A stretch of DNA of 59,881 nt from a virus (IMGVR_UViG_3300046001_001163:1-59881); one strand, 5' to 3'; positions 11,092 to 39,000 are shown, counted from the stretch's first letter. Numbers and translations are program-made. Notes: a model not told the origin generated them from the sequence alone.

Positions 11092-11154
11092 TTTATTCTA
11101 CACCTAAACTGTACTTAACAGATATTTTATGGTCTAATAGAACCGTACCAGATG
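11092..11154 (+). repeat. 63-bp direct repeat, copy 1 (probable early promoter)
   Basis: 56/63 identical to 11933-11995; both copies precede plus-strand ORFs. Confidence 0.85.
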
Positions 11155-11184
11155 AGTACATAACTATAACAACGAGGCAATACA

Positions 11185-11313
11185 ATGAACCTATTAAAGA
11201 TTGAATGTTGGAAAGAACTTAACATAGTAATGAAGGTATACATCTGTATCGGCGCCGCATTTATGGCGGTCATATTAATAGAGAACATAGCAGTCGCTAT
11301 GTTAAGAGGGTAA
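11185..11313 (+). CDS. Small membrane protein (42 aa)
   Basis: Read by hand: MNLLKIECWKELNIVMKVYICIGAAFMAVILIENIAVAMLRG; GAGG SD context identical to that of ORF 11549. Confidence 0.6.
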   Translation: MNLLKIECWKELNIVMKVYICIGAAFMAVILIENIAVAMLRG

Positions 11314-11506: not shown

Positions 11507-11548
11507 TAACCCAACGCACAAGGACGTGCATAACAACGAGGCAATACA

Positions 11549-11794
11549 ATGAACACATATGATGATATATCAAAAGAACTAAATGATCTAACAGAACAAC
11601 AAAAAGTTATACTCGCATCAGTTTGGTGTGATTACTATCCTAGGTCCCCATGTTCAAGGATACAAGAGCTATGGGATTATGCAAATGATAGTAACCTATC
11701 TAGTGAGTTATATAGTATGCAGTCTTATAAGATGTGCGTTATGGACTTTGTATCTAAATGTATAGTAGCTGTATCTCAAGAGTTTGGTAGATAA
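11549..11794 (+). CDS. Early hypothetical protein
   Basis: 81 aa; GAGG SD; followed by a terminator. Confidence 0.65.
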   Translation: MNTYDDISKELNDLTEQQKVILASVWCDYYPRSPCSRIQELWDYANDSNLSSELYSMQSYKMCVMDFVSKCIVAVSQEFGR

Positions 11795-11800
11795 CAACAC

Positions 11801-11824
11801 GGAGACCTTCGGGTCTCCTTTTTT
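11801..11824 (+). terminator. Rho-independent terminator
   Basis: GGAGACC-TTCG-GGTCTCC-TTTTTT. Confidence 0.9.
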
Positions 11825-11932
11825 ATACCATGTCAAATTGATACCAGTTATAAGTGCCCGAGCTCGTCACGTTGTGAGCGTGGCGGACGGCGTTAGGCGT
11901 GGCGCACCATATGGACACATGTCCATGTCCTA

Positions 11933-11995
11933 TTTATTCTACACCTAAACTTTACCTAACAAACATATTATGGTTAAATAGAACCGTACCAGATG
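11933..11995 (+). repeat. 63-bp direct repeat, copy 2 (probable early promoter)
   Basis: 56/63 identical to 11092-11154. Confidence 0.85.
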
Positions 11996-12029
11996 CAAAC
12001 GTGCAAACGGACAAATCGAGATTAATACA

Positions 12030-12611
12030 ATGACAATTAAAAAAGATATACAAACAGTTAAAGCGCAAGGTTATAACCAAGCGGTTGCAGGCGATACCAT
12101 AACCACTATAGCAATGTGGTGTATTGCTAATATAGTTGGTTTCCCTGTTAAGGCTGATATACCAAGCGAATCGAAAGACCAGCTCTATCAAGGTTACAGG
12201 TTACGCCGTAATGAATGTTTTAAACCATCTATAAGTACTCTAGATAGTGGGCGGGAGCAACTTGTAACAGTCGATGTTGCTTATTCTTTTAACAGTGTAT
12301 CATTTGGCAAACTTAAAAACGACCAACCCAAGCTATACCACGCCGTTAAGGACGTTAGAATTGCAACTGATAGCTATTGCTCTAAGAACTATAACCGCCT
12401 ACTTGCAAAGGGTTTGGAAATTCAAAACGAGGGTAAAGAACGAGGTAAGAGAACAACACTAAGTTTTGAAGAACAAGTTGCGAAATCATTTGATAGTCTT
12501 GACGGCAAGGCAAGATTAATGGCAAGTAAAGAGATTGAGAACAAAGTAGTCGAGGATAGGTATAAAAGAGCAGTTGTAGCTTTCAATCGGGTTTGGAATA
12601 GTGAGGACTAA
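12030..12611 (+). CDS. Early hypothetical protein
   Basis: 193 aa, monocistronic between repeat copy 2 and a terminator. Confidence 0.75.
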   Translation: MTIKKDIQTVKAQGYNQAVAGDTITTIAMWCIANIVGFPVKADIPSESKDQLYQGYRLRRNECFKPSISTLDSGREQLVTVDVAYSFNSVSFGKLKNDQPKLYHAVKDVRIATDSYCSKNYNRLLAKGLEIQNEGKERGKRTTLSFEEQVAKSFDSLDGKARLMASKEIENKVVEDRYKRAVVAFNRVWNSED

Positions 12612-12619
12612 GTAGTAAA

Positions 12620-12836
12620 TTAAAAACGCCGTAGGCTTAGGTCTACGGCGTTTTTTTTTGGCTTAAATTTTGTCCACATCAAATTGATGCCAGTTATTCG
12701 ATTGTGAGCGTGTTGATTGCGTTATGACCTAGTAGATTATTTCCTGAGTGGAGATTGATGCCAGTTATGAGTTCGTGGGCGCGTTTGATTACGTTTGACG
12801 GCGTTTTAGACTTTGCTTGTTTGTACGTAGTACTTG
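12620..12836 (-). ncRNA. Candidate leftward small RNA (~215 nt)
   Basis: Bounded by a sigma70 promoter (12843-12871) and the bidirectional terminator; no SD-led ORF; two internal ~44-nt imperfect repeats. Confidence 0.45.
12622..12659. terminator. Bidirectional rho-independent terminator
   Basis: AAAAACGCCGTAG-GCTTAGGT-CTACGGCGTTTTTTTTT; T tract on both strands. Confidence 0.85.
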
Positions 12837-12842
12837 AGCTCA

Positions 12843-12871
12843 AGTCTACATCTTTTTTTTTCGCTTGTCAA
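12843..12871 (-). promoter_or_regulatory. Leftward sigma70 promoter
   Basis: TTGACA (12871-12866)-17 bp-TAGACT (12848-12843). Confidence 0.7.
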
Positions 12872-12999
12872 CACTTATTTTCACGATGTGGACACCTGTC
12901 CACATGCTATTTGTTGTAGTATAACGTGGTTGATATAATATTCTCTTAGCTATTAGGTTTATTATATAAACTAAACTTTACCATAAGGCTCTACAGACC

Positions 13000-13800
13000 G
13001 CATTATACCGTTGACGAAATAACATAAGAACACCGTTTGACATATAAAACACCGTTAAGCTATTGATTTATATAGACGCCGTCAGTTTTGTGTCAAAAAC
13101 GTGTGTCATTCTACAGGGTTTTTTTGACACAAGAATTGGGCTAAGTGTAAAGTGGTTGTAGAATCGCAGACCAAGTGTTTTAGCCGTTTGTCTCTTTTTA
13201 CAGTGTAGCATAAGGCTTCGTTGTGCAAACCATGCAAGCATTTTTGGAGGGTATGCCCCGTAGAAATACTTTTTTTAAAGACCTAATAGACCTCGGCAAG
13301 AGCAGTTAAAAATAGTCGGCTAATCCGGAAATACCCCTATACCCTAAATATGCTTGCATGGTTTGCACAACAATATAAAAGTATTCTACAATATATACTA
13401 CTACTACTACTAATAATAATAATAAAATATAATATAAATAAGTAGTTAGACAGTTTTACTTTTCATGGAATGAAACTCAGAAATGAAAAAGCCCTGTTTT
13501 TGTGTACACTGGACATAATGTAGAGTGCACAAATCCGACAGCGTCTATAACCCTCCAGACCAAGTGTTTTAGGCACCTCCAGCGATGTTCCATTTTTGTG
13601 TCACAACCAAATCCCCTAATGTAAAGTGTAAAGTTAGCACCCCAAAAACATCCCCATTGCACCCATTATTGCCCTTAACATTACATATAAAGCCGTATCA
13701 TTCAACACAACATCGCTACAACTTGACAAAATACCCTAATCATTATACAGTACGTTTACATTATATTTTTCCGTTTTTTGACACAAAACTGCGTCAGAAT
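13000..13800. other. Repeat-rich non-coding region, candidate replication origin
   Basis: Nested inverted repeats (17 bp at 13083/13775; 22 bp at 13220/13350), a 17-bp direct repeat (13167/13556) and an AT-rich tract at ~13372-13460. Confidence 0.5.
13723..13751 (+). promoter_or_regulatory. sigma70 promoter for ORF 13857
   Basis: TTGACA-17 bp-TACAGT. Confidence 0.6.
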
Positions 13801-13856
13801 CATTTAAGAAATAATAGAAATGAAATCCCACAACCTTAACCAAAAGAGTACACACC

Positions 13857-14747
13857 ATGCGTAAAGTAGAAGTTGACATTACAGTAGAATGCGAAACACA
13901 CACAATGACTGAATGGGCTAAGATATTAAAGATGAATAGACATACATTCCGTATGCGATACCTACGAGGTCTACGAGGTGAAGCTCTTGTTGCACCACTA
14001 GAGCCAAGAAAGCCTAAAGAAAAGATAATTAACATAAGGACAACTGTCCACATTGAAGATGAAGCAGAGCAAGAAACCCAGACCCAAGCCCAAGAAGCAC
14101 CCCTGCCATACCCACAGCGTCTACTAACTTATAAAGGCAAGACTAAGACCCTAAAAGATTGGAGCAGAATAACTGGCATCCAGTTTGGCACAGTCCTACA
14201 GCGTTATAAGGCAAACAAAACACCAGAGCAGATACTCGCCAAGATTGACCCCACAGCGTCTACCCATGCTAACCAACGCCTACTTACCTATAAAGGCGAA
14301 ACACTAAACATGACTAAATGGGCAAATCGTTACAGCATACCACTAAGTACAGCGCTATACAGACATGCCAGACATGAACTAGGTAAGATAACAACAGAGG
14401 AAGTATTGTTTGGCATAAAGAACGCTAACACTAAACACGATATAGCCAAGAACCTAACAGACTATAGACTACGTCAACTAAAACAGCGTCAGGCAGACCA
14501 GCACAAAGAGAAAGAAGATGCACTACAAGCGTATAAAGACAACGTGGCTTGGATAAAGGGCGAGAAGATTAGAAGAGTAGAAACCCCATACTCAAACCAT
14601 CAGACCAACACACTAAACAAATTCAACGAACCACAGGGCTTCGTGTGGCAGAACACAGGACACATAGAGGTAGCAGAGAAAGACATACCAGAAGAACTAC
14701 GCAACATGGTGGATATATTCAAAGCCCCGAAAGCATATGATGAGTAA
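13857..14747 (+). CDS. Putative DNA-binding protein with three repeated HTH-like modules
   Basis: Three copies of a TYKG.T..L..W....G/N I.....R module like those appended to phage HNH nucleases; no HNH motif seen. Confidence 0.65.
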   Translation: MRKVEVDITVECETHTMTEWAKILKMNRHTFRMRYLRGLRGEALVAPLEPRKPKEKIINIRTTVHIEDEAEQETQTQAQEAPLPYPQRLLTYKGKTKTLKDWSRITGIQFGTVLQRYKANKTPEQILAKIDPTASTHANQRLLTYKGETLNMTKWANRYSIPLSTALYRHARHELGKITTEEVLFGIKNANTKHDIAKNLTDYRLRQLKQRQADQHKEKEDALQAYKDNVAWIKGEKIRRVETPYSNHQTNTLNKFNEPQGFVWQNTGHIEVAEKDIPEELRNMVDIFKAPKAYDE

Positions 14748-14775
14748 TTGGGGAGGGCTAAGATAATAACAAACC

Positions 14776-14844
14776 AAACATCTACCCGACAAACATCTAC
14801 CCGACAAACATCTACCCGACAAACATCTACCCGACAAACATCTA
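14776..14844 (+). repeat. Tandem repeat AAACATCTACCCGAC x4 plus a partial copy
   Basis: Perfect 15-bp units start at 14776, 14791, 14806 and 14821; partial copy at 14836. Confidence 0.95.
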
Positions 14845-14871
14845 ACTCACTTATCTATCGTATTTAGTACC

Positions 14872-14900
14872 TTGACATAGGTAAAGTTTTACTGTATAAT
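14872..14900 (+). promoter_or_regulatory. Consensus sigma70 promoter for the long plus-strand operon
   Basis: TTGACA-17 bp-TATAAT, exact consensus. Confidence 0.9.
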
Positions 14901-15013
14901 AGTACTTGTAGTACGGAATTAGGAATTAAATCAGAAAGGGTTTTAAGGTAGTAAAAGGTGTTTATGTTAATTAACGTGTGGACATGTGTCCACATTACAA
15001 TCGGAGAAGTAAG

Positions 15014-15157
15014 ATGAAAGAGTTACTAGAGGCATTAGCGGATTTGGCTACAAATGCAGATGAAGACTGCCCACATGAGTACAGAAGCAAACATTTTGAT
15101 ATAGCGTTAGATACTGCATGGGATTTAATAGTTAAATATAATAAGGAACTAAAATGA
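15014..15157 (+). CDS. Small hypothetical protein (47 aa)
   Basis: Read by hand: MKELLEALADLATNADEDCPHEY...; GGAG SD; stop coupled to the next start. Confidence 0.6.
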   Translation: MKELLEALADLATNADEDCPHEYRSKHFDIALDTAWDLIVKYNKELK

Positions 15158-15342
15158 ATGAAGATATGATTGATAAAGAGTACAGAGCCTTCACCGTTCT
15201 ATATAAGAAGTCATCAGCGGAGATATGGGCGAAGTCAAGAGAGAGTGCAATGAACAAGGCTCAGAGCCACTTCAAAGTAACAGCTAATCAACGCAACAAC
15301 ATCAGAGTTATTAAAGAATTTGATGCACTAATGGTAGGGTAA
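15154..15342 (+). CDS. Hypothetical protein
   Basis: 62 aa; AAGGA SD. Confidence 0.6.
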   Translation: MNEDMIDKEYRAFTVLYKKSSAEIWAKSRESAMNKAQSHFKVTANQRNNIRVIKEFDALMVG

Positions 15343-15346
15343 TGAG

Positions 15347-15496
15347 ATGGTAAGTCTAGAGAAGATATACACGGCGCAAGCCAATGCACACGGAAACATA
15401 ATAGTATGCCGTGGTACTGAAGTAAGAAACTCTTATAAGATAATAGGTACTGGGTCTTATAAAGAAATGTTAGAACTTAAACTTAAACAGGATTAA
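15347..15496 (+). CDS. Small hypothetical protein (49 aa)
   Basis: Read by hand: MVSLEKIYTAQANAHGNIIVCRG...; fills the gap in the operon. Confidence 0.5.
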   Translation: MVSLEKIYTAQANAHGNIIVCRGTEVRNSYKIIGTGSYKEMLELKLKQD

Positions 15497-15500
15497 TACA

Positions 15501-16556
15501 ATGACTAAAGAAGAATTAGACCAAATGGTGCGTGACATAGAGCAAGCTGAGGCAGAGCTTGTAGAGGAAGGATTGAATAAAGAAGAATTAGACCAAGAGG
15601 AGGAAGGACTGGCATCCGATGTGGACATGTGTCCACACGCTAAAGAAGAAATAGTGCCACAAGTAACGGCGTTGAGCCAACCAAAGCATTTAATATCTCT
15701 TAGCACATCAGCTGTGCTTGTATGTGCAGATGTTCGGGTGTGGAGTGCAACAGCGGTAGACCCAGAGATATCTAGTGAGGTTACAACTGCTAAGAAAGCA
15801 GACAAGAACGCAGGGAAATTCGTTAAGAATATATTAAACAATAATGCCAAGCATAAGGCTATCGTCAACTACAGACAGACTATTTATAACTGGATGAAGA
15901 GACGAACTTATAGATGGAACAAGAGTCAGGACTTGCTACCTAGTATGGACTTACCAATGTTCAAGCAAGAGTGGGCACATCATGAGAACCAATTTAATAT
16001 TATATTAGATGAGTTTATTAATGACTATGACCACATCGTCAGCAACATGGCATTCAGTCAGGGCGATATGTTCAACAGAGATGACTACCCAACTAAAGAT
16101 GAAGTACGTAAGAAGTTTAGTGCTCAGATGTTTGTTGCAGAAGTACCGACCAATGACTTTAGATGCAGTATAGCTAATGATATCGCAGAGGATTTGTACG
16201 ACACATACACCAAGCAGACGGCGTCTATCATCGAGGGCATTGCGAAAGACCAAGGCGAACGGCTAATTGACTTGATGGTTAGTATAAGCTTTTGCTGTGA
16301 CATAGAGGACAAAGACTCTAAAAGACGCCGTAAGATATACGACACTACGCTGGACAAGGCTAAGAGTATGTGTGACTTGTTCAAGACCTTTAACCTTACA
16401 AGTAATCCTCAGTTAGAGGAAGCAAGGGCAAACTTAGAGAGAACGCTCAAGGGTGTAGATGCAGAGGCAATAAGAGGTAGCGATAGCCTAAGAATATCTG
16501 TAAAGAAAGATGTAGATAGTATCTTAGAGAAGTTCAGTAGCTTTAAATGCGTGTAA
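15501..16556 (+). CDS. DUF3150-like protein
   Basis: W......LLP, F...Y, F...DYP...EVR.KF and FNLT..P.LEEAR..LE patterns recalled from DUF3150-like phage proteins; upstream of the AAA/VWA pair. Confidence 0.6.
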   Translation: MTKEELDQMVRDIEQAEAELVEEGLNKEELDQEEEGLASDVDMCPHAKEEIVPQVTALSQPKHLISLSTSAVLVCADVRVWSATAVDPEISSEVTTAKKADKNAGKFVKNILNNNAKHKAIVNYRQTIYNWMKRRTYRWNKSQDLLPSMDLPMFKQEWAHHENQFNIILDEFINDYDHIVSNMAFSQGDMFNRDDYPTKDEVRKKFSAQMFVAEVPTNDFRCSIANDIAEDLYDTYTKQTASIIEGIAKDQGERLIDLMVSISFCCDIEDKDSKRRRKIYDTTLDKAKSMCDLFKTFNLTSNPQLEEARANLERTLKGVDAEAIRGSDSLRISVKKDVDSILEKFSSFKCV

Positions 16557-16765
16557 TCTTTATAAAGACAGACAACGTGCCATCTACTTGCAATTACTTA
16601 ACTAATGGTAAAGAGTATATGGGTAGACAGGAATCACCACTAAGTATAGAGCTACGAGTAGTACGTATTATTAGTGATAGTGGTACTGAGGTAAGTACGC
16701 TCCTTACAGGGTGTGCTCACCTTGATGATAAAGATTGGGAGGTAGTTAGAATATTAGAAGTATAG
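16547..16765 (+). CDS. Hypothetical protein
   Basis: 72 aa with YLT.GKEY and CAHL...DW motifs. Confidence 0.6.
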   Translation: MRVIFIKTDNVPSTCNYLTNGKEYMGRQESPLSIELRVVRIISDSGTEVSTLLTGCAHLDDKDWEVVRILEV

Positions 16766-16820
16766 CAGTAAACAACACATGGACAACTGTCCACATTATA
16801 AATATAACTAAGGAAATACA

Positions 16821-17894
16821 ATGTCACAATTAAACTTTATTAACACAGTAACAATCAACGAACTACGTACAATCATTCCAACTATAGGTGAGCACTTAAC
16901 TCCTATTATCCAGTCTGAACCGGGTTGTGGTAAGACATCGTTACTTGATATGATTCGGGAAGATTTGGGGGATAAATATGATTATATCTATGTTGATTGT
17001 CCAGTTAAGGATATGTCAGACATAGGCATGGTTATTCCGAACCACGCAACACAGAGTTTAGAGTACTACGTAGCAAGCCTTTTCAAATTAGATTCAAATA
17101 AACCTAAAGTAATCTTACTTGACGAGTTCATGAAGTCACCTAAGCTATTGCAAGTAATCTTCACAAGGTTAATGTTAGAAAGAATGGTAGGTGATAGAGC
17201 CTTACCAGCTGGCAGTATAGTATTCGGCACAAGCAACAACGCATCAGATGGTGTGGGTGACTCAATGCTGGCACATGCAGGGAACAGAGTATGTATTCTT
17301 AAAATGGCGAAGCCTACAGTAGACGAGTGGTTGACATGGGCAGGGGAAGCAGGGATTAGTCGAGTCATCAGAGCATGGGTAAATATGTTCCCAAGAGCAC
17401 TGGCATCATACACGAACGGCGACCAGAACGACAACCCATACATTTTCAAACCATCATCGAGTGCTATGTCGTTTTGTTCACCACGTTCATTAGCTAAGGC
17501 AGATGTAATCGTACGTAACACAGACAAGCTAGGTGAGAATGCCACGATGTGTGCGTTAGCAGGAACTATAGGAGCGAGTGCCGCGGGTGATATGGCGGCG
17601 TTTCTATCATTAGAGAAATCATTAATTGATGTTAAGGACATTATCAAAGAACCAAAGATTGTGAAAGTACCAGACGAGATATCAGCGCAGATAATGATTA
17701 TGTTCCAAGCTATAGACATGCTCGACTCGCAAGATGAATTGTCGGCGTTCATGGAGTTTGTAGAGCGTATTAAGTCATCAGAGGTACAGGCTATCTTTTT
17801 CACTATGATGATGCGAGGTAGTAAGAGTGTGCGTCTGGCTAGTAGGAACTTAAAGATTGCGAAATGGGCGGCAGAAAATCACGAGTTGTTCTAA
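16821..17894 (+). CDS. MoxR-like AAA+ ATPase
   Basis: Walker A SEPGCGKT, Walker B ILLDE, sensor GTSN, NR arginine finger, SPRS sensor II. Confidence 0.9.
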   Translation: MSQLNFINTVTINELRTIIPTIGEHLTPIIQSEPGCGKTSLLDMIREDLGDKYDYIYVDCPVKDMSDIGMVIPNHATQSLEYYVASLFKLDSNKPKVILLDEFMKSPKLLQVIFTRLMLERMVGDRALPAGSIVFGTSNNASDGVGDSMLAHAGNRVCILKMAKPTVDEWLTWAGEAGISRVIRAWVNMFPRALASYTNGDQNDNPYIFKPSSSAMSFCSPRSLAKADVIVRNTDKLGENATMCALAGTIGASAAGDMAAFLSLEKSLIDVKDIIKEPKIVKVPDEISAQIMIMFQAIDMLDSQDELSAFMEFVERIKSSEVQAIFFTMMMRGSKSVRLASRNLKIAKWAAENHELF

Positions 17895-17906
17895 TAGGAG
17901 AACATC

Positions 17907-19088
17907 ATGCAAAAGCAAATGACAAGAATAAAGAAAGCCCACGTAGCTATGATGAAGCACCCACAGACGGCGTTATACTCAGGTGTAATGCTAATGGGCA
18001 CATCAGAGGTAGTAGAAGATGCTAAGTTCACAGCGTACACCGATGGAGTTAATAAGAAATATGGGCTTAAGTTCCTTAAGAGTGTAGATAGCAACGCTAA
18101 ACTACGAGGTCTAGTACTGCATGAGAACCTACATGTTGCGCTGAAGCATATCCCACGAGGTGTGGACATGTGGAAGAAAGATAGTAGGATTGCGAACATA
18201 TCAGCAGACTATGTTGTAAATGGAATTATTAAAGACATAGACGGTAAAGTTGCTGGAGGTGTTGAACGTATAGTTGAGCTACCAGATAATGCGTACCAAG
18301 ATGATATGTTTAGAAACTGGAGTATGCGTGAGGTATTTAACTTCTTAATCAAGAACCCACCGCCAGAGGGTAATGGTAATGGTGAGGGTGGTGATGGTGA
18401 TGGTGATGTACATGACTTTGAGAATTGTAAAGACCTAACTCATGAAGAAGCAAAGGCTATGTCTGAGGCAATAGATAAGGCATTGCGTGAGGGTGGCATA
18501 CTTGCAGGGCGAATGGGTGCGACTGTACCGAGAGCTATAGCAGACCTACTAGAGCCGAAGATAGACTGGAGAGAAGTGCTTAGAGAGTTTGTTACATCAG
18601 CTACTAGAGGGAGTGACGAGACTACATGGCGAAGAATGAATAAGAGATACTTAGCCAATGATATGTATGTCGCAGGGTACGAAGCAGAAACTATGGGTGA
18701 AGTTACCATTGCTATAGATACATCAGGTTCTATAGGTAGTGCAGAGCTGACGGAGTTTGCAAGCGAACTGGCATCTATTTGTGGTGTGTGTTGTCCTGAA
18801 CGTGTACGCATTTTGTGGTGGGATACACAGGTACATGGTGAGCAGATATTCGAGACTGACTACGCTGACATAGCCACGCTGTTAAAACCGTTAGGTGGAG
18901 GTGGTACTAACGTATCGTGCGTTAGTGAGTATATTACGAAGCATAAGCTCAATAGTGAGTGTGTGATTGTATTCACAGATGGTTACTTGGAGGACAATAT
19001 TAAATGGAACATAACTATGCCGTCACTATGGCTAGTAACACAGAACAAATCATTTGAACCACCACAAGGTAAGAAGGTAAACGTATGA
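17907..19088 (+). CDS. DUF2201-type metallopeptidase-like + VWA domain protein
   Basis: TAYTDG and HENLH (HExxH) in the N-domain; MIDAS DTSGS, GGGGT and VFTDG in the C-terminal VWA domain. Confidence 0.85.
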   Translation: MQKQMTRIKKAHVAMMKHPQTALYSGVMLMGTSEVVEDAKFTAYTDGVNKKYGLKFLKSVDSNAKLRGLVLHENLHVALKHIPRGVDMWKKDSRIANISADYVVNGIIKDIDGKVAGGVERIVELPDNAYQDDMFRNWSMREVFNFLIKNPPPEGNGNGEGGDGDGDVHDFENCKDLTHEEAKAMSEAIDKALREGGILAGRMGATVPRAIADLLEPKIDWREVLREFVTSATRGSDETTWRRMNKRYLANDMYVAGYEAETMGEVTIAIDTSGSIGSAELTEFASELASICGVCCPERVRILWWDTQVHGEQIFETDYADIATLLKPLGGGGTNVSCVSEYITKHKLNSECVIVFTDGYLEDNIKWNITMPSLWLVTQNKSFEPPQGKKVNV

Positions 19089-19360
19089 GTGCAGTACAAG
19101 AAGTAAGAGAGGAGAAAGCAAGGAAGCTACAGAGCGATGCTGTAAACAGGTATATGAGACTAAAGGAGAATGAGTTAGATACACATAAGAGCGATGCTGA
19201 GAAGTATAAGAACATATGTGTTGGGCTGACGTTAGCCCTAATAATAGCGTTTACAGGGTTAGGGTACAGTCTTAACTATATAGACAATATTAAACCATGT
19301 GAAGTTAAGTACATTAAACCTAACGCTAACGATAAATACATATTAGAGAGATTAAGATAA
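19085..19360 (+). CDS. Hypothetical membrane protein
   Basis: 91 aa with one hydrophobic segment; translationally coupled. Confidence 0.6.
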   Translation: MSAVQEVREEKARKLQSDAVNRYMRLKENELDTHKSDAEKYKNICVGLTLALIIAFTGLGYSLNYIDNIKPCEVKYIKPNANDKYILERLR

Positions 19361-20469
19361 TGAGCACATTAGAAAGAGTAACAACATATAGCCACTGTAT
19401 CCTAGACTACGCGCGACTAGAGCGAGTTACGCAAGGTGAGAAACCATATAGAGGAACAACAGATAGATATCCACTAGAAGAAAGAAGATATGCAACAAAA
19501 TGCTTTAGAGAAGAAACTTTAAACGGTGAGAAAGTATATAGGGTATACAGAGACCATAACTATGAGGCAAAGTTTATAACTGTGGAAGAGTATAACGCCA
19601 TGCCAAGAGCTAAACGAAATAAAGTACACCCCGATGCGACTGATAGACCAGACGAACTTAGACGCTATAAGATGTATGAGAGAACACCATGTGAGATAGG
19701 CATAGTGTACCCAGACAATTCGTTTGAGTTTACTGCGAAGTTTGGTTGGGGGGGTCTTCCACAAGGGCTTAAGATAGCAATGAGCTACAACTGGCTGGGT
19801 AGGGCATCTCTATGTACAAGTAGCAAACATGGTGGGGCGTTATTATCAGGTGGTGGTGTGATAGGTAATAATTATGGATTCACTCACCCTGTGTTTAATG
19901 GACTACGTGTGTATGTGAATACATTAGAGTTGCATGAGTCATGCAGTTACGAGGTATCAGGCTATAAGACTAATAATAAAGCTGTAAAGGCAGTCTTTGA
20001 ACCATATAAGGAATTATTTACTGTAGCTGACGTAATGTTTAGAAACATGAGAGATGAGGACATTATAGAGATGGTTAAAGAGGTTACTCCAGAGACTCTT
20101 ACTTCTTATAGTTACCATAACTATTTAATAGAAAATGAGGAAGAGTATGAAATTGCGCTTAATAACTACGTAGAGGAGCTTGCTGTTAATCCCCTACTAT
20201 CTACGTTAGGTATTGCGTCACTAGGTAATGTCAATAAGCTAAGAGAGCATGTGAGATGGGCTATTAATTATTCTAGACCTATTCTTACAGGGCTTAACAG
20301 GGCTACCCTTGTCGCTAACACAGCTAAGGCATTCAAGCACAAACTATGTAGAGAAGATAGAGATACCTTACTAGTAAAGGTAGCGTATGAGTCTACTAAA
20401 AGGTTCCCTGCGAGCATATGGGGTAACGAGGTTAGAGTAACTGGCATCTTAGTAGAGCAATATAAATAA
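19360..20469 (+). CDS. Hypothetical protein
   Basis: 369-aa ORF in the operon; no motif recognised. Confidence 0.75.
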   Translation: MSTLERVTTYSHCILDYARLERVTQGEKPYRGTTDRYPLEERRYATKCFREETLNGEKVYRVYRDHNYEAKFITVEEYNAMPRAKRNKVHPDATDRPDELRRYKMYERTPCEIGIVYPDNSFEFTAKFGWGGLPQGLKIAMSYNWLGRASLCTSSKHGGALLSGGGVIGNNYGFTHPVFNGLRVYVNTLELHESCSYEVSGYKTNNKAVKAVFEPYKELFTVADVMFRNMRDEDIIEMVKEVTPETLTSYSYHNYLIENEEEYEIALNNYVEELAVNPLLSTLGIASLGNVNKLREHVRWAINYSRPILTGLNRATLVANTAKAFKHKLCREDRDTLLVKVAYESTKRFPASIWGNEVRVTGILVEQYK

Positions 20470-20507
20470 CATGTGGACAACTGTCCATACAATAATTGGA
20501 GCAAACA

Positions 20508-21503
20508 ATGAACGCTAGAGATTATATAAACACAAACTCAGTAATGTTAGACGGTGACTGGGAATCACTACATAAGATTATAGATGATTCACAAGTAGAG
20601 AAGATAGTAAAGTGGTTACACAAAACATATGGCTTGCAAGTGTATAGAATAAAAGAATTAAATACGTCTATATGTATGGCTTACGGCGATGGGTTTCATG
20701 TGTGTGAGTTGTATGCTATTACTAAAGAGATTCCTGATTATAATAGTGTTGCTTATGAAGTCACTAAAGCTTACGAAACTACGTACTACTACGTGTCACC
20801 GTTCAATCTTAGAGATAAATACTCTAGGGAGTATAGGAACGACACTAGAGCAAGTAAGGGTCTAACTAACTTGATGAACATTATAAAGAAGATAATACCA
20901 ATAGAAAAAAGTGTTAATAGTAAAGTTATACATGGCTTTTGTGAGTTGAAAGAAACTATAGAAAAAACAGTACAAGGTATTGACTACAAGAGTAGGTATG
21001 AGCTAGAAGATGGTATGGTTCATGCGTTATTACAGAAAGTATTAGGTGGTAGTAAAGTTGTAGAGTACACATTAGATGTAGAGTTGGCAAGTAGTGTCCT
21101 TATTAAATGGGATAGTGCAGATGCAACTGCATTGGCAAGACGTACAATTTCCTCTCAGTTTCTAGAGAAACCGCTGACTGCGCTCGGAGTAAATATAGAT
21201 GGAACCTATATGATAGGAACTATACAAAAAGATATGTCCTCATGTGTCAATGAATTGTATACAATACTCACCCCATTCAAGCGTATTAGTAAATATAGTT
21301 TAGAAGAGTACCCTATGGCTCAAGCAATGGTAACTATGTTTAGTGTAGTAAATGAAGATAAACAAAAATGTATTGGGTTTATACCTAGTATCGGTGGGTA
21401 CAATGATGATTTAAATGTTATATCAATACCAATAGCTAATAGCTACAGCGGTGAGAGTGGACAATTAGGAGGTATGGGATGGCTTTTGATGCCAGCAGAT
21501 TAA
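20508..21503 (+). CDS. Hypothetical protein
   Basis: Start moved to ATG 20508 (GGAG SD); no motif recognised. Confidence 0.7.
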   Translation: MNARDYINTNSVMLDGDWESLHKIIDDSQVEKIVKWLHKTYGLQVYRIKELNTSICMAYGDGFHVCELYAITKEIPDYNSVAYEVTKAYETTYYYVSPFNLRDKYSREYRNDTRASKGLTNLMNIIKKIIPIEKSVNSKVIHGFCELKETIEKTVQGIDYKSRYELEDGMVHALLQKVLGGSKVVEYTLDVELASSVLIKWDSADATALARRTISSQFLEKPLTALGVNIDGTYMIGTIQKDMSSCVNELYTILTPFKRISKYSLEEYPMAQAMVTMFSVVNEDKQKCIGFIPSIGGYNDDLNVISIPIANSYSGESGQLGGMGWLLMPAD

Positions 21504-31731: not shown

Positions 31732-32607
31732 ATGAGCAATGAATTAGCAAATATTTTAGCCTCTAACCCTAACCTAGTTCAAACTGGACTGGACGCAGAT
31801 ACTCTAGCTGTTGCTGGTGGTACAGGCGGTGGTGGTTCTAAAAGTATAAGAATTAAAGGCGGTGTATTCCGTAAATATGTAGGTAGCAAAGAAATCGGCG
31901 CTATTGAAGATCGTCATATGAACATCATCATTGTTAAGATGGCACATAAGGCTTCACGCATGATGTATGACGGTCCGTTTGTAGAGGGTGAAACGTCTAG
32001 TGCAGTATGCTGGTCTACTGACTCTAACAAACCTGACGAATCGGTTGAAGTTCCATCTTCTGTTAGTTGCTCTACTTGCCCTTACAGCATAAAAGGCTCT
32101 GGCACTAATGGTGTTGGTACTAAATGTAGTCTGTTCTGGAAAGTAGCTGTAGTGTTACCTAATGATGTATCTGGTGATGTTATGGAATTAAAGCTTCCTT
32201 CAGCTTCTACTTTTGGCGAAGAGAAAGACGGTAAACGTCCATTCCGTCCATACATACAACACTTAGCTCAACACAATGTAAGTGCTGGTAGAGTTATTAC
32301 TAAGATGCAGTTTGATACTACAGCTACATTCCCTAAAGTAGTATTCTCACCTGTTGGTGCAGTGCCTGAGTCTGACCTAGATGCAGTTGCTAAACAGTCA
32401 CAAAGCAAAGAAGCAGAACATGCAGTGGTTATTCAAGTTTATAAAGAAGCCGCTAAAGCCACTGAGATAGAATTTCTACAAGCTCTTGGTACTACTGTTA
32501 GTGAAGAACCCCAAGCTTTTGCTGAACCTGTTAAACGTGAATCACCCGCTGTGTCCGCTAAAGTTGAAGCAGTAGCAGACGCTGTTAAAAAATGGTCTAA
32601 GACATAA
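31732..32607 (+). CDS. Putative single-stranded DNA-binding protein
   Basis: IRIKGGVF, CWS.D...PD, CxxC...C zinc site; position between helicase and primase. Confidence 0.55.
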   Translation: MSNELANILASNPNLVQTGLDADTLAVAGGTGGGGSKSIRIKGGVFRKYVGSKEIGAIEDRHMNIIIVKMAHKASRMMYDGPFVEGETSSAVCWSTDSNKPDESVEVPSSVSCSTCPYSIKGSGTNGVGTKCSLFWKVAVVLPNDVSGDVMELKLPSASTFGEEKDGKRPFRPYIQHLAQHNVSAGRVITKMQFDTTATFPKVVFSPVGAVPESDLDAVAKQSQSKEAEHAVVIQVYKEAAKATEIEFLQALGTTVSEEPQAFAEPVKRESPAVSAKVEAVADAVKKWSKT

Positions 32608-32942
32608 TGGCACGTACATATAGTAAGGAGTTTATTGATCTAGTAGAGTTGGCTGATCCCAGTAAAGCAGGGATAGTATTAGCTAAAGTTTGTTTGAGGG
32701 CTAAGTTACCAGCTAAGTATATAGCAGTAGCCATGAACGTATCTCGTATGACAATATACAGTTGGTTTAGAGGTAATCCTTTACGTGAGAAGAACCAAGA
32801 GCTTGTTAGGGTTTTTATTGCCATACTAGAGGATGATCTTTCTAAGGGTATACTACCTGTTAAAGGAATAGAACAGGCTAAGGCGTATATAGAAGATATA
32901 GTTGGCACTCAGATAGTAGACGAGGACTTAGAAAGAGTATAA
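32607..32942 (+). CDS. HTH (Cro/CI-like) DNA-binding protein
   Basis: PAKYIAVAMNVSRMTIYSWFRG. Confidence 0.75.
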   Translation: MARTYSKEFIDLVELADPSKAGIVLAKVCLRAKLPAKYIAVAMNVSRMTIYSWFRGNPLREKNQELVRVFIAILEDDLSKGILPVKGIEQAKAYIEDIVGTQIVDEDLERV

Positions 32943-33004: not shown

Positions 33005-35857
33005 ATGTTAAAACAATTCTATAAGAAAGCATTACCGAGGCATGGCGTTTACTGTATTAGCGGTATCAATGACGCTAAAAAGATAACTAACCATTTTACA
33101 GAAACAATAGATGGTGTAATAGACCACATAGAAAGCTTAAAAAGCAAAGGATTAAATACATTTGTAGCATTAGGTGCATTCGATGGTTATAGCAGAAAGA
33201 AAGACAACTGCCATAGCTTCCGTTCGTTCTTTATTGATTTAGACGTAGGTGTAGATAAAGCTGAACATGGTAAGGGCTACGTAGACAAAGCCTCCGCTCT
33301 AGAAGCATTAGATAAATTCATAATTGAAAGTGAACTACCTCCTCCTGTAAGAATAGACTCAGGAACTGGCATCCATGCGTACTGGCTGTTAGACGAGGAC
33401 GTTCCATTTGCGGAGTATTTACCCTATGCTATAAAGTTTAAAACCTTTTGTTTGGCTAGGATATTTGCAGACCCTGCGGTTATGGCAGACGGCGCTCGTA
33501 TTATGCGTTGCCCTGATACCTTTAATTACAAAACTAATCCCCCATCACCTAGTGGATTCATAGATACAGAGTTCCACCAATATTCATTTGAAGCATTTAA
33601 AGACTTTCTAGGAGTTACTGAGGAAGAATCAGAAACGGATATATTTGCTAGTATCCCTAAAGGGTTAGATGAAGATACCAAAGCTATGCTTAAACTAGAT
33701 AACTTTGTTTATACATTTGCAGAACTAGCTGATAAAAGTGTAAATGGTAATGGCTGTGCTCAGATACGTAATATATTAGAAAATGTTGAAACTGCACCAC
33801 GAGACCTATGGGCGGCAGGGCTAACTATAGCTATTAAATGTATAGATGGGGAAACCGCTATACACGAGATGTCAAACACACATTCAAAATATAACCATGA
33901 AGAAACTATTAGAACAGCTAATTCCTTTGAAAAGCCCAGAACTTGTGAATGGTTCTATGCCAATGTGCCAGAAATATGCGAGGGATGTAGACATAGAGGA
34001 AAAATCAATTCCCCCTTTGCCCTTGCAAGAGAGTTCCAAGCCGCACCAGCGAAAACTAATAAAGCGGAATCAATTCGGGAAGAACCGAGTGCCCAAACTG
34101 TTCCAGCATTTCCAGAGTTCTTAAAGCCTTTTCTACGAGGTGAGAACGGCGGTATATACCATATACCACCACCAAAACTAGATAAGAATGGTAACTCACA
34201 TTACGATGACCCAATCTTAATAGTACCGCACGATTTATACCCAATACGTAGGATGTTTAGTCCTCTAGACGGTGAGTGCTTAGTGATGCGGCTGATACTA
34301 CCAAATGACGCCGTCAGAGAGTTTTTACTTCCTATGAAGGACGTATACTCTATTGAAAAATTCAAGGCAATAATGTCTAGTAATGGTGTGTTTTATACGC
34401 CGTCATTAGTCAATATTCTCATGCAATACATAGTTAAATGGGGACAATATATGGTCAGTAAAGTACAAGCAGACGTTATGCGTATGCAAATGGGTTGGAC
34501 AGAAGAAAGAACAAGCGGCGATGTCGCATGGTCACATAAAAGTTTTGTAGTAGGTGCAACAGAGATAGATAACTCTGGCACAGAGAAGCCGTCAGCGGCG
34601 TCACCAATGGTGCGTAGCACGTCAAAACATCTTATGCCTATGGGTTCATATAAGAAGTGGCAAGAGGCGGCTAACGAGCTAAATAGAGAGGGATTAGAGC
34701 TACATGCGTTTACCATGCTAGGTGGGTTTGGTTCTCCGTTAATGTGTTTCTCATCTACATCAGGTGTAGCTGTGTCTTTGCTAGGTAGGTCTGGTTGCGG
34801 TAAAACAGGTGCTATGTATGCAGGACTAAGTGTATTTGGTAATCCTAAAGATTTAAGTGTGTTTGAAGCTACAGATAATGGTATGACTGGACGATATCTA
34901 GCCCTCCATAACTTGATGCTAGGCATAGATGAAATAGGCGATAAAGACCCGAAAGTATTAGGGCAATTAATACATAAAATATCACATGGTAAAGCTAAGA
35001 TCAGAATGCAAGGCTCTATTAATGCTGAACGTGAGCATGAGATGTCGGCATCGTTAATTGGTATCTTTACTACTAACCAATCTGTATATAATAAACTAGA
35101 AGGCATTAAAGCATCACCCGATGGTGAAGCCGCTAGGTTGATAGAGTTCTTTGTTAGAAAGCCTGAGATTCTATCAGGGGATAAAGGTAATGAGTTTGGT
35201 AAGCGAGTGTTTGACCAATTCCGTTTTAACTATGGTCATGCTGGCTCTAGATTTATTAAAGAAGTATTCAGAGTAGGAGATAACTATATCTTAGAAACTA
35301 TGAGCGATTGGGGCGATAGGTTTAGAAAAGACTTCCGTTCTGGTGATTCAGCTTATAGATTTTATGAGAACTTAGTTCAAGTATGTATGACTGCAGGAAC
35401 CATTGCTGTAAATGCTGGTATTATTGAACTAGACCTAGAGCGTGTGTACACTAGCGTAGTAGCAGAAATGCTACATATAAAAGATAAAGTAATCACAGTT
35501 AATAAGTTAGATTATCAATCTGTACTAGGGGACTTTGTTAATAAGAACATGGCTAATATACTTGTACTTAAAGAAGGTAAAGTAGCTATGGAACCACGTG
35601 GTCAGTTAGTAGCTAGAGTAGATACGGATAAGAGTACGTTGCAAGTATCTAGGACAGTCCTTAAAGCCTACTTGGCTGAACGTAATATTAGCTCACGTGA
35701 ATTTGAATCTACACTAAGGGAGCTTAGAGTTATGAATACAACAGACTCAAGAGTTAGATTAACTAGTGGGTGGAAGACAGCGGTATCATTAGAACCTGTA
35801 TGGTGCTATGTATTTACTACACAAATTCCAGCTGAATGGGCGAAGGATGCCGCTTAG
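33005..35857 (+). CDS. Primase-helicase (RepB-like AEP primase + Zn site + DUF927-type P-loop helicase)
   Basis: FFIDLD, SGTGIHAYW, RIMRCP.TFN; C...CxxCxH; Walker A GRSGCGKT; Walker B LGIDE. Confidence 0.85.
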   Translation: MLKQFYKKALPRHGVYCISGINDAKKITNHFTETIDGVIDHIESLKSKGLNTFVALGAFDGYSRKKDNCHSFRSFFIDLDVGVDKAEHGKGYVDKASALEALDKFIIESELPPPVRIDSGTGIHAYWLLDEDVPFAEYLPYAIKFKTFCLARIFADPAVMADGARIMRCPDTFNYKTNPPSPSGFIDTEFHQYSFEAFKDFLGVTEEESETDIFASIPKGLDEDTKAMLKLDNFVYTFAELADKSVNGNGCAQIRNILENVETAPRDLWAAGLTIAIKCIDGETAIHEMSNTHSKYNHEETIRTANSFEKPRTCEWFYANVPEICEGCRHRGKINSPFALAREFQAAPAKTNKAESIREEPSAQTVPAFPEFLKPFLRGENGGIYHIPPPKLDKNGNSHYDDPILIVPHDLYPIRRMFSPLDGECLVMRLILPNDAVREFLLPMKDVYSIEKFKAIMSSNGVFYTPSLVNILMQYIVKWGQYMVSKVQADVMRMQMGWTEERTSGDVAWSHKSFVVGATEIDNSGTEKPSAASPMVRSTSKHLMPMGSYKKWQEAANELNREGLELHAFTMLGGFGSPLMCFSSTSGVAVSLLGRSGCGKTGAMYAGLSVFGNPKDLSVFEATDNGMTGRYLALHNLMLGIDEIGDKDPKVLGQLIHKISHGKAKIRMQGSINAEREHEMSASLIGIFTTNQSVYNKLEGIKASPDGEAARLIEFFVRKPEILSGDKGNEFGKRVFDQFRFNYGHAGSRFIKEVFRVGDNYILETMSDWGDRFRKDFRSGDSAYRFYENLVQVCMTAGTIAVNAGIIELDLERVYTSVVAEMLHIKDKVITVNKLDYQSVLGDFVNKNMANILVLKEGKVAMEPRGQLVARVDTDKSTLQVSRTVLKAYLAERNISSREFESTLRELRVMNTTDSRVRLTSGWKTAVSLEPVWCYVFTTQIPAEWAKDAA

Positions 35858-36050
35858 AATAACTGAACCAGAATGGATATTTCCATTTGACTCTATGGAG
35901 GTCGGGGATAGTTTCTTTATCCCCACTTTATGCCCTACAGAAATAATTTATGCTATAGACTGTGGGGCTAAGAGGACTAAGATAAAAGTTAAAGCCTATA
36001 TGGTTACTCATAATAACCTAATAGGTGTTAGGGCATGGAGAGTAGCTTAG
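35847..36050 (+). CDS. Small hypothetical protein (FPF..MEVGDSFF family)
   Basis: Start moved to 35847 (MPLRITEPEWIFPFD); ends with GVRAWRV; converges with the late operon. Confidence 0.65.
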   Translation: MPLRITEPEWIFPFDSMEVGDSFFIPTLCPTEIIYAIDCGAKRTKIKVKAYMVTHNNLIGVRAWRVA

Positions 36051-39000
36051 TAAGGCTTCATACCATATGCTTTAAACTCTTGAAGCAGTTCATTTTTAAT
36101 CACATTTATTTCCAGTGTTATTGGTTTGATTAGAGCTTCTCTTTCTTTAGGAGTTAGCTCTTTCATCTTTCTATATTCTTTAGCTTCATGATATAGGTCA
36201 TTTAAATCACTACCTGTAACCTTATCATATATATCAACTATAGTTTCATCCATTGGGTTAGCAGCTATGTATTTCTCATACTGCTCTGGATTAGACTCAT
36301 ACATCTTTAGCAGACCTCTTTTTTCTTTAATCTGTTCTTCCATCTTACCAAACTCACGAGCATCTACACTAGATGATGTACCAAAGAACGAGCCAATAAG
36401 AGGTAGATCATTTTTAGGACTAAAGTCTTTTTTACCTTTTAATCTCATGTTATACATAGTTTCCCAAAGCCTAGATGCTCCATCAGCATAGCTATTAGCA
36501 AAGAAATATAATGAGTTAGGGGCAATATCAATAGGCTTGCCAGTAAACGGATTGGTCATATTATCTGCCATATACGCCGCTACATCATTCCAAGTTTCTG
36601 GAACTTTATCCCCTCTGTTATAAGCTTCCCCACCTGTACCTGTACCCATAGATTCTTTATAGATATCTTGACCTAGCCCATTTTTATTCAGTGCAAACTC
36701 TAATAAAGGCCTTACTGCGCTTGGTGTAACAGAATCTAAAGCAAACTCTAATGGGTCTTCAAGTGGGTCCATTCTAGAAACTGGTATCGGTACAAATGAG
36801 TCGAGTGAAATTTGCAAAAAGATGTTTTTTAAAGCTTCTTTTATTGGGGTATTTCCGGAGCCTACAGCCGCAAGTTGTGCACCAGCTGACGCAAACGAAC
36901 CTAGACCAAAGCCCCAAGGAATTTGAAATACAATCTCAGTTCCCGGTACATGGAACCTAGCAAACCTAGCCCATTGATCCATATTGTCTGTAGCAGTTTT
37001 GTTTCTACCTTGGTCATCGTCATCTGCCATCATCATAGACATCATGTAAGCCGTTACACCCATACCCATTAAAACGGTTGCCATAATACGAGCATTTTTT
37101 TGTTGGGCTTTATAGTTTTTTGTAAAGCTATTTATAGCACTAGGGTCAGAATATACTCTTTTACCATCGACTTCTTTATATTTAAACGCTCCAGAATTAG
37201 GTAGTCTTTTAACAGCTGCTTCCATAGCACCCGGAAATGCAGGAGCAATGGCCTCTATAGACCTAACAGCACCTGTAGCTGAAGGACGCGCAAACATATA
37301 TAGAGCGCCTAACTCTTTACCATAAGAACCTACTTGTTCAAAGTTAGCTAAGTTTTTTACGTACGATGCAGCTTTTGTGCCAGCGGCGTCTTCTGATAGG
37401 TTTTCATCCATATAAGTCTTTTTCATTACGCCGTATGCGGCTGACCTACTAGCAATTTCAAACATTTCGTTCCATACGTTTACAAAGTAATCTATTTTAG
37501 CTTTAGTATTTAATAGCCCAGATTTTCCTGTAATTTTTAATAGCTCCTCATAGTTAGACTTAACACCCATACTAGCCATATAAGATACTTTCCCACCATG
37601 ATTAATATAGTCCACCATGTCTCTAATATAAGGATCAGTTTTAGCTAATTCTTTTAGTTTATCAGAGTTATTATCTTCATAGAGTTTAGAAACTTTCATA
37701 GCTTTCCATAAACCATTTTGCATGATTACTTTATTTGCTATTGTAGCAATAAATTCTGCACTCTTTTTAGGTCCCCGTTCCGCTCCCATTACCCATGCGT
37801 TTGTAAGTATATCCCGCACAAAGTTCATTGGAGCAAAGTTGTAGTTATACCTAGTATGCACTTGACCTAAAAGACTAGTAACGCTGTTAGCTACATCCCA
37901 GAACGGATGTGAAGAGTCATACGTACGTCTAATAGATTCAAGTATCTTTTTAGATGATGGTTCAAACTTTATAATAACAATACTACCATCAGCGTTGTAA
38001 TGTAAGATACGCATATCTGAACTAGTATCTTTAACAGTATTTCTTTCAGAGAAAGGTATAATTTTCTCTATGTTAGCATTTAAAAGCTTTACTCCTTTTG
38101 AGTCAGGTGTAGCGGCGTTTAATATAGACTGAGTTAAATTCTTTCTACCTGCACGGTCAGCGGCTCTACTTGCATCAGTGATAGTTTGCAATACAACGTT
38201 CTCTGCATCATCACCACGACCACCCCATGCTTTAGCAAAGTCTTGATACTCTTTACCTTGTTTAACAGTATCTAAATCAAAAAACTCATCTACGGTATTA
38301 TGTTTTGGATTACCTTTAAATGGCGAGTAGTCTTCCCATCCGTAAAATGCTACCCAATTACCTACAGGCTTAGACCAAAAATTAGATTCTTTATCCATCT
38401 TCTTAGTATTTTCACTAAGCTCTTTCATAGAATCAAATATTTTTTTAATTAAAGCATGAGTTTTTGGGTCTGTACTAGCTAGATTATTATATTCATCTAC
38501 ATAACTATTTTCTTGTTCAGCAGATATGCCTAACGTGTTGTACTTACTATTATTAGGATTGCCATCTTTAGGGTCTAACGGCGCCGCATAAAGAGCAACT
38601 AAACCATTTACTTCGTCCCGTAGTAGTTTAGCATCAGCTTCTGATAATCTAGGATCATTTAACAAACCTTTATTTGGACTAGCTGGATTAGCTCTATCCC
38701 CTATAATCTCAAACCTACGATCTTGTGGGCTTATCATAGTGCCATCTAGCTTACGTTTTATAACTTCCTTAGTAGACAATGGAACAGTCATAACAAACTT
38801 AGTCAGACGGCGTTCTTTACCGTTTAAACCTAGTCTAAAGTTTTGTATAACATTAAGCGTATCGTCTATAGTATTGCCTTTCAAATGATTATTAAGTTCT
38901 TTAAGGCTTTCTTGCATACTCTCTAAAGGCTTAATTATAAATTTCTTTCTATAGTTTAAGGCCCCTTGTTGGGCTAAAGTAAGTTGCTCATAGATATTAT

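Follow-up and report, generated by a model that had tools for sequence, protein, structure and literature searches.

Dispersed, phage-specific repeats near gene starts are already known from Cluster O, K and A mycobacteriophages, and for the most part neither their reader nor their mechanism has been assigned. In phage lambda, the nut signal unites a boxA that is conserved among related phages with a phage-specific boxB hairpin, at two sites downstream of the early promoters; boxB-type recognition reads the loop, and nut specificity co-evolves with a small early phage protein. The repressor of the temperate phage phiC31 binds 17-bp conserved inverted repeats at many sites of the early region. 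Among the mycobacteriophages, the stoperators of Cluster A phages (L5, Bxb1) are presented, in the portions of PMC6550527 and PMC9283540 that deal with them, as asymmetric 13-14-bp sites bound by a monomer and spread genome-wide, at 20-30 per genome, in temperate phages. The sections of PMC4351075 on the Cluster O repeat describe a 17-bp palindrome, TGTTCGGNNNCCGAACA, with 34 copies genome-wide and one sequence in five described phages, and give its function and binder as unknown, as is the function of the Cluster K SAS and ESAS repeats in the sections of PMC3203893 devoted to them. Here, we describe an array of palindromes in the early region of an uncultured lake phage (IMGVR_UViG_3300046001_001163), whose whole 59,881-nt (59.9-kb) genome record constitutes the window, together with its counterparts in 80 related viral contigs, or loci, retrieved with the ATPase of this phage.

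An early palindrome array replaced in sequence from genome to genome

The palindromic core GGACA-NN-TGTCC (GGACANNTGTCC) occurs seven times in the lake phage, with cores at 11913, 12890, 14038, 14980, 15623, 16781 and 20475, whereas 100 dinucleotide shuffles of the genome average 0.02 copies and never exceed one. It is by far the commonest palindrome with 5+5 arms, the runner-up having three copies. All seven copies lie between 11.9 and 20.5 kb, and since the window is the entire record of a nearly complete virus genome (completeness estimate, 94%), this restriction is genome-wide and no copy exists elsewhere. The initial reading, made from the sequence only, had claimed a non-random set confined to the early region, and the scan of the whole record bears this out. 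The full 18-mer TGTGGACANNTGTCCACA is kept less strictly, with 0, 0, 0, 1, 2, 2 and 3 mismatches over the seven copies, so that only three of the seven are perfect. The two-nt centres (CA, CC, AC, TG, TG, AC and AC) vary freely between conserved arms that stand about one helical turn apart, as in a dyad-symmetric site, and, as the same reading had put it, this is the pattern expected of a dimeric sequence reader. The array falls within a plus-strand block of early and replication genes (11-36 kb) encoding DUF3150-like, MoxR-type ATPase, DUF2201 metallopeptidase/vWA, DNA polymerase A, helicase and DUF927 primase proteins; the structural, packaging and lysis genes occupy minus-strand blocks at 1-10.8 kb and 36-59.9 kb.

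Related phages carry palindromes of their own. In 47 loci the sequence extends 4 kb or more beyond the ATPase gene on its upstream side; 45 of these have a repeated family with exact 5+5 arms, the definition used for all site sets, in at least three copies; 38 reach at least four copies and 26 at least five, whereas mononucleotide shuffles reach three copies in only 3 of the 80 loci. The exact motif of the lake phage is multi-copy only in its closest relative, L005 (six copies), and three other loci (L037, L071 and L081) hold one lone core match each without its flanks. In L006 and L007, whose ATPases are 87-90% identical to that of the lake phage, GTCGTCA-NN-TGACGAC stands at the places corresponding to its sites. 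Further types include TCTGTCA-NN, TCCGTC-N4, CGTCGT-N6, TGTAGTGA-NN, TTCACGT-NN, CCCAGC-N4 and many TTCCACG and CCCACG, giving more than ten related half-site types at corresponding places, with centres of 2-6 nt and free sequence. Five complete or nearly complete relatives carry their own palindrome 7, 6, 9, 9 and 7 times, in one early stretch of ~6-13 kb, and the reversed-pattern control in the same genomes gives 0, 0, 0, 2 and 0. The sites recur downstream of P1 (the first conserved early gene, considered below), before the DUF3150-like gene, before a further early gene, P3, and in some genomes before P1. A scan of relatives had been proposed from the outset; what it reveals, sites conserved in position and replaced in sequence genome by genome, is stronger evidence than the proposal had called for. 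No comparable palindrome family was found in the cultured phages HTVC027P (50 kb) and DSL-LC04 (33 kb) or in the first 12 kb of the N4-like phage Pastis.

When 283 unique sites from 68 loci are aligned on the palindrome centre, a conserved box emerges at -18 to -11, with T, A (81%), w, w, T (73%), A (70%), r and C (TAWWTARC). It lies 1-2 nt upstream of the left arm in all types, and a weaker mirror of it appears at +13, +14, +17 and +18. The profile of these sites contains no -35 signal. The unit has a polarity, full 8/8 matches to the box standing on the gene-upstream side at 67 of 273 sites and on the other side at 5. Of the 156 sites with a box match of 6/8 or better, 68 have a start codon with a ribosome site 20-50 nt past the centre. 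A reading frame stays open through the site in 68 of 261 cases, far fewer than chance in a densely coding region. By site-profile counts the centre bases are mildly A/C-rich on the sense strand, and imperfect arm positions display no excess of G.T over A.C (for example, 20 vs 40 and 26 vs 50). The box might be suspected of being a mere stop codon. The upstream open reading frame (ORF) stops within it in just 21 of the 54 cases where one ends nearby, so this idea does not account for the box.

A second layer of context comes from host-type promoters. Strong sigma-70-type promoters (at least 10/12 matches) in the relatives place their -35 in a peak at -85 to -81 from the palindrome centre at 26 sites, and between -100 and -86 at 13 more; the opposite strand has no comparable peak of strong promoters. 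About two sites per genome stand some 50 nt past a strong promoter, at about +31 to +58 of its transcript and behind a structured leader, in the order TTGACT-17-TATACT, leader hairpin, box, palindrome, ribosome site and start codon. Folding of 25 such leaders gave a mean z of -2.1 against shuffles, with 15 of the 25 below -1.5. The hairpin ends 0-1 nt before the box and its stem sequence varies from site to site; it is seen in single-sequence folds, RNAalifold on the 25 leaders recovering the palindrome only. The hairpin loop often holds GGGAGG in relatives (e.g., L009:655-718 and L048:7372-7435). In two genomes, G001 and G002, the divergent region has one copy immediately before a TTGACA -35, and no rightward promoter was found upstream of that copy. 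The conserved box, this promoter-plus-leader context and the probable leader position of one copy, described below, had all been overlooked when the sequence was first read.

Some copies lie inside genes, and codon usage there bends to suit the site. A genome's own palindrome occurs inside the vWA-like gene in 12 of 51 loci, representing eight half-site types and always in a low-complexity linker at about residues 140-169 of the lake phage protein. In 15 of 66 loci a copy coincides with the PLPxG codons of the ATPase, where the synonymous codons follow the half-site type of the genome, for example CCG TTG CCA GAC GGA in a TCCGTC genome vs CCA CTA CCA CGT GGA in a TTCCAC genome. A small CxxC...CxxC zinc-ribbon family is also present in the early region of several relatives (L088:11881-12120, L100:660-878 and L091:18298-18516); it is not recognised in the lake phage, and in L045 a palindrome copy lies inside that gene.

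The individual copies and their neighbourhood in the lake phage

The box stands to the left of copies 3, 4, 6 and 7 and, mirrored, to the right of copies 1 and 2; copy 5 has none. Copy 1 (11910-11927, box 11929-11936), to which, as to copy 2, no strand is assigned, has three mismatches to the 18-mer, follows a terminator at 11801-11818 and lies upstream of a promoter-like repeat that precedes the gene at 12030. Copy 2 (12887-12904, box 12906-12913) is perfect, and after it comes TTGTTG-17-TATAAT (12911-12939), a 9/12 match noted by eye and absent from the promoter scan listing. The other copies are on the plus strand. Copy 3 with its box (14026-14052; box TAATTAAC at 14026-14033, palindrome at 14035-14052) is inside ORF 13857-14747, and in L005 its arms are kept and its centre and flanks changed. 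Copy 4, a perfect palindrome with the same box TAATTAAC (14968-14994; box 14968-14975), ends 20 nt before the ATG at 15014, a start with a GGAG ribosome site. Copy 6 (16769-16795; box TAAACAAC at 16769-16776) ends 25 nt before the ATPase start at 16821. Copy 7 (20463-20489; box TAAATAAC at 20463-20470) ends 18 nt before the ATG at 20508, and its box holds the stop codon of ORF 19360-20469.

The perfect copy 5 (15620-15637) falls within a long reading frame, 15501-16556, and ends ~14 nt before a GTG at 15651. Homology of this frame to relatives begins only at residue 55-58, so the DUF3150-like protein probably starts at that GTG, which would probably place copy 5 in the leader of the gene. Two copies had initially been put inside genes; this stands for copy 3, and copy 5 is probably not coding. 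Two lone half-sites reported with the copies, TGTCCACA at 12671-12678 (after the second terminator, 12622-12655) and TGTGGACA at 18161-18168 (inside the vWA-like gene), neither with an assigned strand, are indeed present, in a number close to the chance expectation for such 8-mers, and each is compatible with chance.

The sole 12/12 promoter match in the lake phage, TTGACA-17-TATAAT (14872-14900, plus strand), has the consensus sequence of the sigma-70 type and is the counterpart of the strong promoters of the relatives; transcription from it would put copy 4 at about +70 to +88. Directly upstream of it lies a perfect 15-bp tandem repeat, CAAACATCTACCCGA, in 4.7 copies (14775-14844); it is iteron-like and could represent an origin or a further array of binding sites. 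Copying inside this genome seems to have involved early control cassettes: a 63-nt promoter-like segment is duplicated with 89% identity (11092-11154 and 11933-11995), and a 25-nt segment comprising a ribosome site and start is duplicated exactly (11166-11190 and 11530-11554). A second repeat family, ATTGATRCCAGTTAT..., has three intergenic copies after the two terminators (11837-11868, 12683-12714 and 12754-12785). The ORF-poor stretch of ~950 nt at 12909-13860 is 96% identical in L005, above the flanking genes, but no counterpart is detectable in L006 or L007. This stretch includes a 26-nt inverted repeat (13220-13245 and 13346-13371), has no Rfam match and could be a non-coding RNA or an origin.

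The lineage of the lake phage belongs to an abundant group related to the HTVC023P type, its terminase being nearest, among cultured phages, to those of HTVC023P-type pelagiphages and lake phages (43-51% identity). Its ATPase is closest to that of N4-like phages, at ~25% identity, where the corresponding gene adjoins the RNA polymerase II genes. No cultured phage matched 11000-21000 by megablast, and Rfam and tRNA scans of the window found nothing. Among the ORFs scanned, none hit a family of RNA polymerases, sigma factors, integrases, repressors or ParB proteins. Outside the early block, a 2243-aa protein with LPD38 and SprT-like domains (36047-42778) looks polyvalent and is probably an ejected virion protein, not a recognisable RNA polymerase. 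By a term search of their main texts, two papers on HTVC023P-type phages (PMC9599517 and PMC12753301) mention neither promoter nor palindrome, and no paper treating pelagiphage, promoter and inverted repeat together was found in the literature.

A proposed phage-encoded DNA reader and its rivals

It is tentatively proposed, as the reading we favour, that the palindromes are arrayed as operators or roadblocks for a sequence-specific factor which the phage encodes and which shifts its specificity together with its sites. The seven copies would act as cis-regulatory sites of early transcription units, each pairing the lineage-wide box with a genome-specific 16-18-bp dyad, and the dyad would be read as double-stranded DNA by a symmetric, dimeric factor drifting in specificity along with all its sites. 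Bound past strong promoters of host type, at the junctions of cistrons and at a few places inside genes, such a factor would block or gate RNA polymerase, and the array, resembling an operator-plus-'stoperator' set, would time or shut off early expression. Where a copy lies beside the -35 of the first early promoter, as in some genomes, binding could also regulate initiation. We infer reading at the DNA level from the conserved arms with free centres, the partly mirrored flanks, the lack of a G.T excess, the copies beside a -35 and two stems of the lake phage that would be marginal as RNA; the factor would presumably be a repressor.

The half-site types grade into one another, so that they probably share one homologous factor. 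Four fast-evolving plus-strand proteins of no known family, present in most relatives, are candidates: P1 (12030-12611, 193 aa), the weakly leading candidate for the specificity factor, and, as alternative candidates, P2 (19360-20469), P3 (20508-21503) and P4 (21479-21886). They are the fastest-evolving core early proteins, with 24-31% mean identity to the lake phage across six genomes. Of seven proteins compared, P1 has the identity that tracks half-site distance best (partial correlation given ATPase identity, -0.64 vs -0.17 to -0.46). Searches with the P1 family returned only metagenomic proteins of about 200 aa without a name, and an Atlas search with P1 gave weak leads only, DUF3102 and Phage_Repressor_c (0.80-0.81). 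The latter was rejected, as hhalign against the phiC31 repressor gave a probability of 0.1%. An Atlas search with P2 gave no usable match.

The helix-turn-helix proteins nominated as binders when the sequence was first read fare less well. Homologues of ORFs 13857, 22171 and 22757 occur in no more than 3, 2 and 1 of the 80 related loci; these ORFs are specific to the clade of the lake phage and absent from the core genes of six genomes, and were set aside as readers. ORF 32607 (32607-32942, plus strand), a 111-aa helix-turn-helix protein, is universal, yet genomes that differ in their palindromes encode it with a nearly unchanged recognition helix, so it is not the determinant of the variable arms; at most, and speculatively, it could read the conserved box. 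It lies immediately upstream of the DUF927 primase gene (33005-35857), an arrangement that we take to recall the AlpA-primase pairs of P4-like elements.

Several observations weigh against a phage-encoded DNA reader, and against P1 in particular. A symmetric dimer leaves unexplained a one-sided box that is constant across all specificities; the polarity of the unit and the mild A/C-richness of its centres pull the same way, and the placing of the box between leader hairpin and palindrome also suits an RNA signal. The exact-arm definition means that the site sets hold some chance matches, besides missing imperfect copies, and many loci are close kin, so that the counts are not independent events. 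The correlation for P1 is confounded by shared descent: six gene trees all need the same 10 type changes, and since the trees agree with each other, asking which protein tracks site type does not discriminate. Only 10 of 39 loci have an exact-arm palindrome in the 300 nt preceding P1, and P1-P4 have no Pfam or PHROG family and no solved structure recognisable by sequence.

The main rival, which we consider somewhat less likely, is an RNA-level signal in the early transcripts that, like lambda nut, would join a conserved single-stranded box, read by a host or conserved factor, to a phage-specific hairpin read by a phage protein, and would serve in antitermination, in messenger RNA processing or stability, or in translational control of the next gene. 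Box polarity following gene direction, a box-hairpin distance fixed over all types, the two or so sites per genome behind a structured leader of strong-promoter transcripts, the fixed place before ribosome sites and the mild A/C excess of the centres all fit it. All seven copies of the lake phage can, moreover, fold as RNA (-5.3 to -12 kcal/mol), and terminators are present at the two places named above. However, conserved stems with free loops are the reverse of boxB-type recognition, and the imperfect arm positions show no preference for G.U. As RNA, copies 3 and 6 are marginal, with stems of only 4-5 bp; for some copies, such as site 1 of G001 and G002, no promoter that would drive a transcript was found; and 6-10 sites per genome exceed what antitermination needs. 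A broader proposal is that a widespread, uncultured lineage of lake podophages has an undescribed two-part control signal, the lineage-wide box with the genome-specific dyad, and that its reader is a protein family of no known fold (P1 being the best guess) that has branched into more than ten natural and distinct specificities, or else that the signal is a nut-like RNA; it seems doubtful to us as it stands.

Readings that would tie the sites to transcription initiation, to the host or to DNA partition have more against them. It is improbable that box and palindrome are a promoter for altered machinery, whether a phage RNA polymerase or sigma-like factor (as with N4-like hairpin promoters or a T4-late-like TATAAATA) or a MerR-type regulator with the dyad in an overlong spacer. 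The AT-rich box does resemble a -10 or T4-late element; by eye, copies 4, 6 and 7 can be written as TTAACG/ACAACA/ATAACA, 19 nt and TACAAT/TATAAA/AATAAT with the dyad in the middle, and the ATPase and vWA genes resemble those adjoining N4-like RNA polymerase II genes. Yet family scans of the ORFs hit neither an RNA polymerase nor a sigma family, and P2 and P3, tried as N4-like RNA polymerase II subunits, reach an hhalign probability below 1%. The profile lacks a -35, the last base of the box is A whereas a -10 requires T, and the real strong promoters are ~80 nt upstream of the sites; the MerR-like register is not general, and in G004 the ribosome site would precede the predicted start. A parS-like loading and spreading array, or a set of recombination or cassette-boundary sites, is more improbable still, even though the sites are clustered 16-18-bp palindromes that flank variable small genes and, in L036 and L084, arms of the TTCACGT and TTTCAC types are reminiscent of what we take to be the letters of parS. 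Early-region matches include no ParB, integrase or recombinase family, the spacing is unlike parS, and the sites go with ribosome sites and promoters, follow gene direction and are positionally ancient, not mobile. Of the parS-like or roadblock array first suggested, then, the roadblock is among the better readings, and parS loading, with no ParB-type family in the ORFs scanned, is not. Least credible of all are back-to-back DnaA boxes or other host-factor sites that titrate or recruit a host protein, the alternative offered at the outset. DnaA boxes are conserved across bacteria, and the half-site TGTCCACA does fit 7 of 8 overlapping positions of the 9-nt consensus TTATCCACA. Nevertheless, the relatives with 87-90% identical ATPases have GTCGTCA arms, and others TCTGTCA, GTAGTGA, CCCAGC or TCCGTC, at the same places and without a CCACA core; no 9-mer resembling TTATCCACA is kept, and a host box under conservation would not be replaced like this.

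If the broader proposal holds, in its protein-family or its nut-like form, these phages would supply orthogonal pairs of regulator and site ready for use, and would time their early genes in a way new for lytic phages; the nut-like form would, in addition, represent a new system of antitermination or processing in phages other than the lambdoid ones. The comparative series is unusually clean, with the same gene order and site positions, more than ten site sequences and a constant box, so that the choice between DNA and RNA, the identity of the reader protein and a specificity shift across all sites are directly testable.

Comparison with described systems

With lambda nut, the sites share a box followed by a phage-specific hairpin at a fixed distance past an early promoter, at about two sites per genome. 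They differ in that boxB is read through its loop, whereas here the centre varies within every genome, and in numbering 6-10 rather than two; no N-like protein was recognised, arginine-rich motifs not having been searched for. The phiC31 system resembles the array in its multiple early-region dyads, and differs in its repressor, to which P1 has no similarity.

Closer are the mycobacteriophage repeats. As set out in the relevant sections of PMC3203893, the Cluster K repeats are likewise limited to the half of the genome without structural genes, where they immediately precede start codons and recur at corresponding genes, and the inverted-repeat consensus of ESAS differs between subclusters; in contrast, SAS and the ribosome site overlap, and ESAS has imperfect 17-mers as arms, set apart by a variable spacer of 4-13 bp. 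The Cluster O palindrome, as its description in PMC4351075 has it, shares the invariant 7-bp arms, the free centre and the mostly intergenic or start-proximal copies with some in genes, and differs in that this description reports no conserved adjacent box or orientation. The closest known system is that of the Cluster A stoperators. Compared with these, as far as the portions of the reports cited above describe them, the present sites are 16-18-bp dyads with a conserved box, at 6-10 per genome and in the early region only, in a phage whose scanned ORFs include no integrase or repressor family. Nonetheless, both are sets of many sites across transcribed DNA, oriented with transcription, few of them in promoters and most intergenic, and both have a consensus particular to each group, which in Cluster A co-varies with the repressor.

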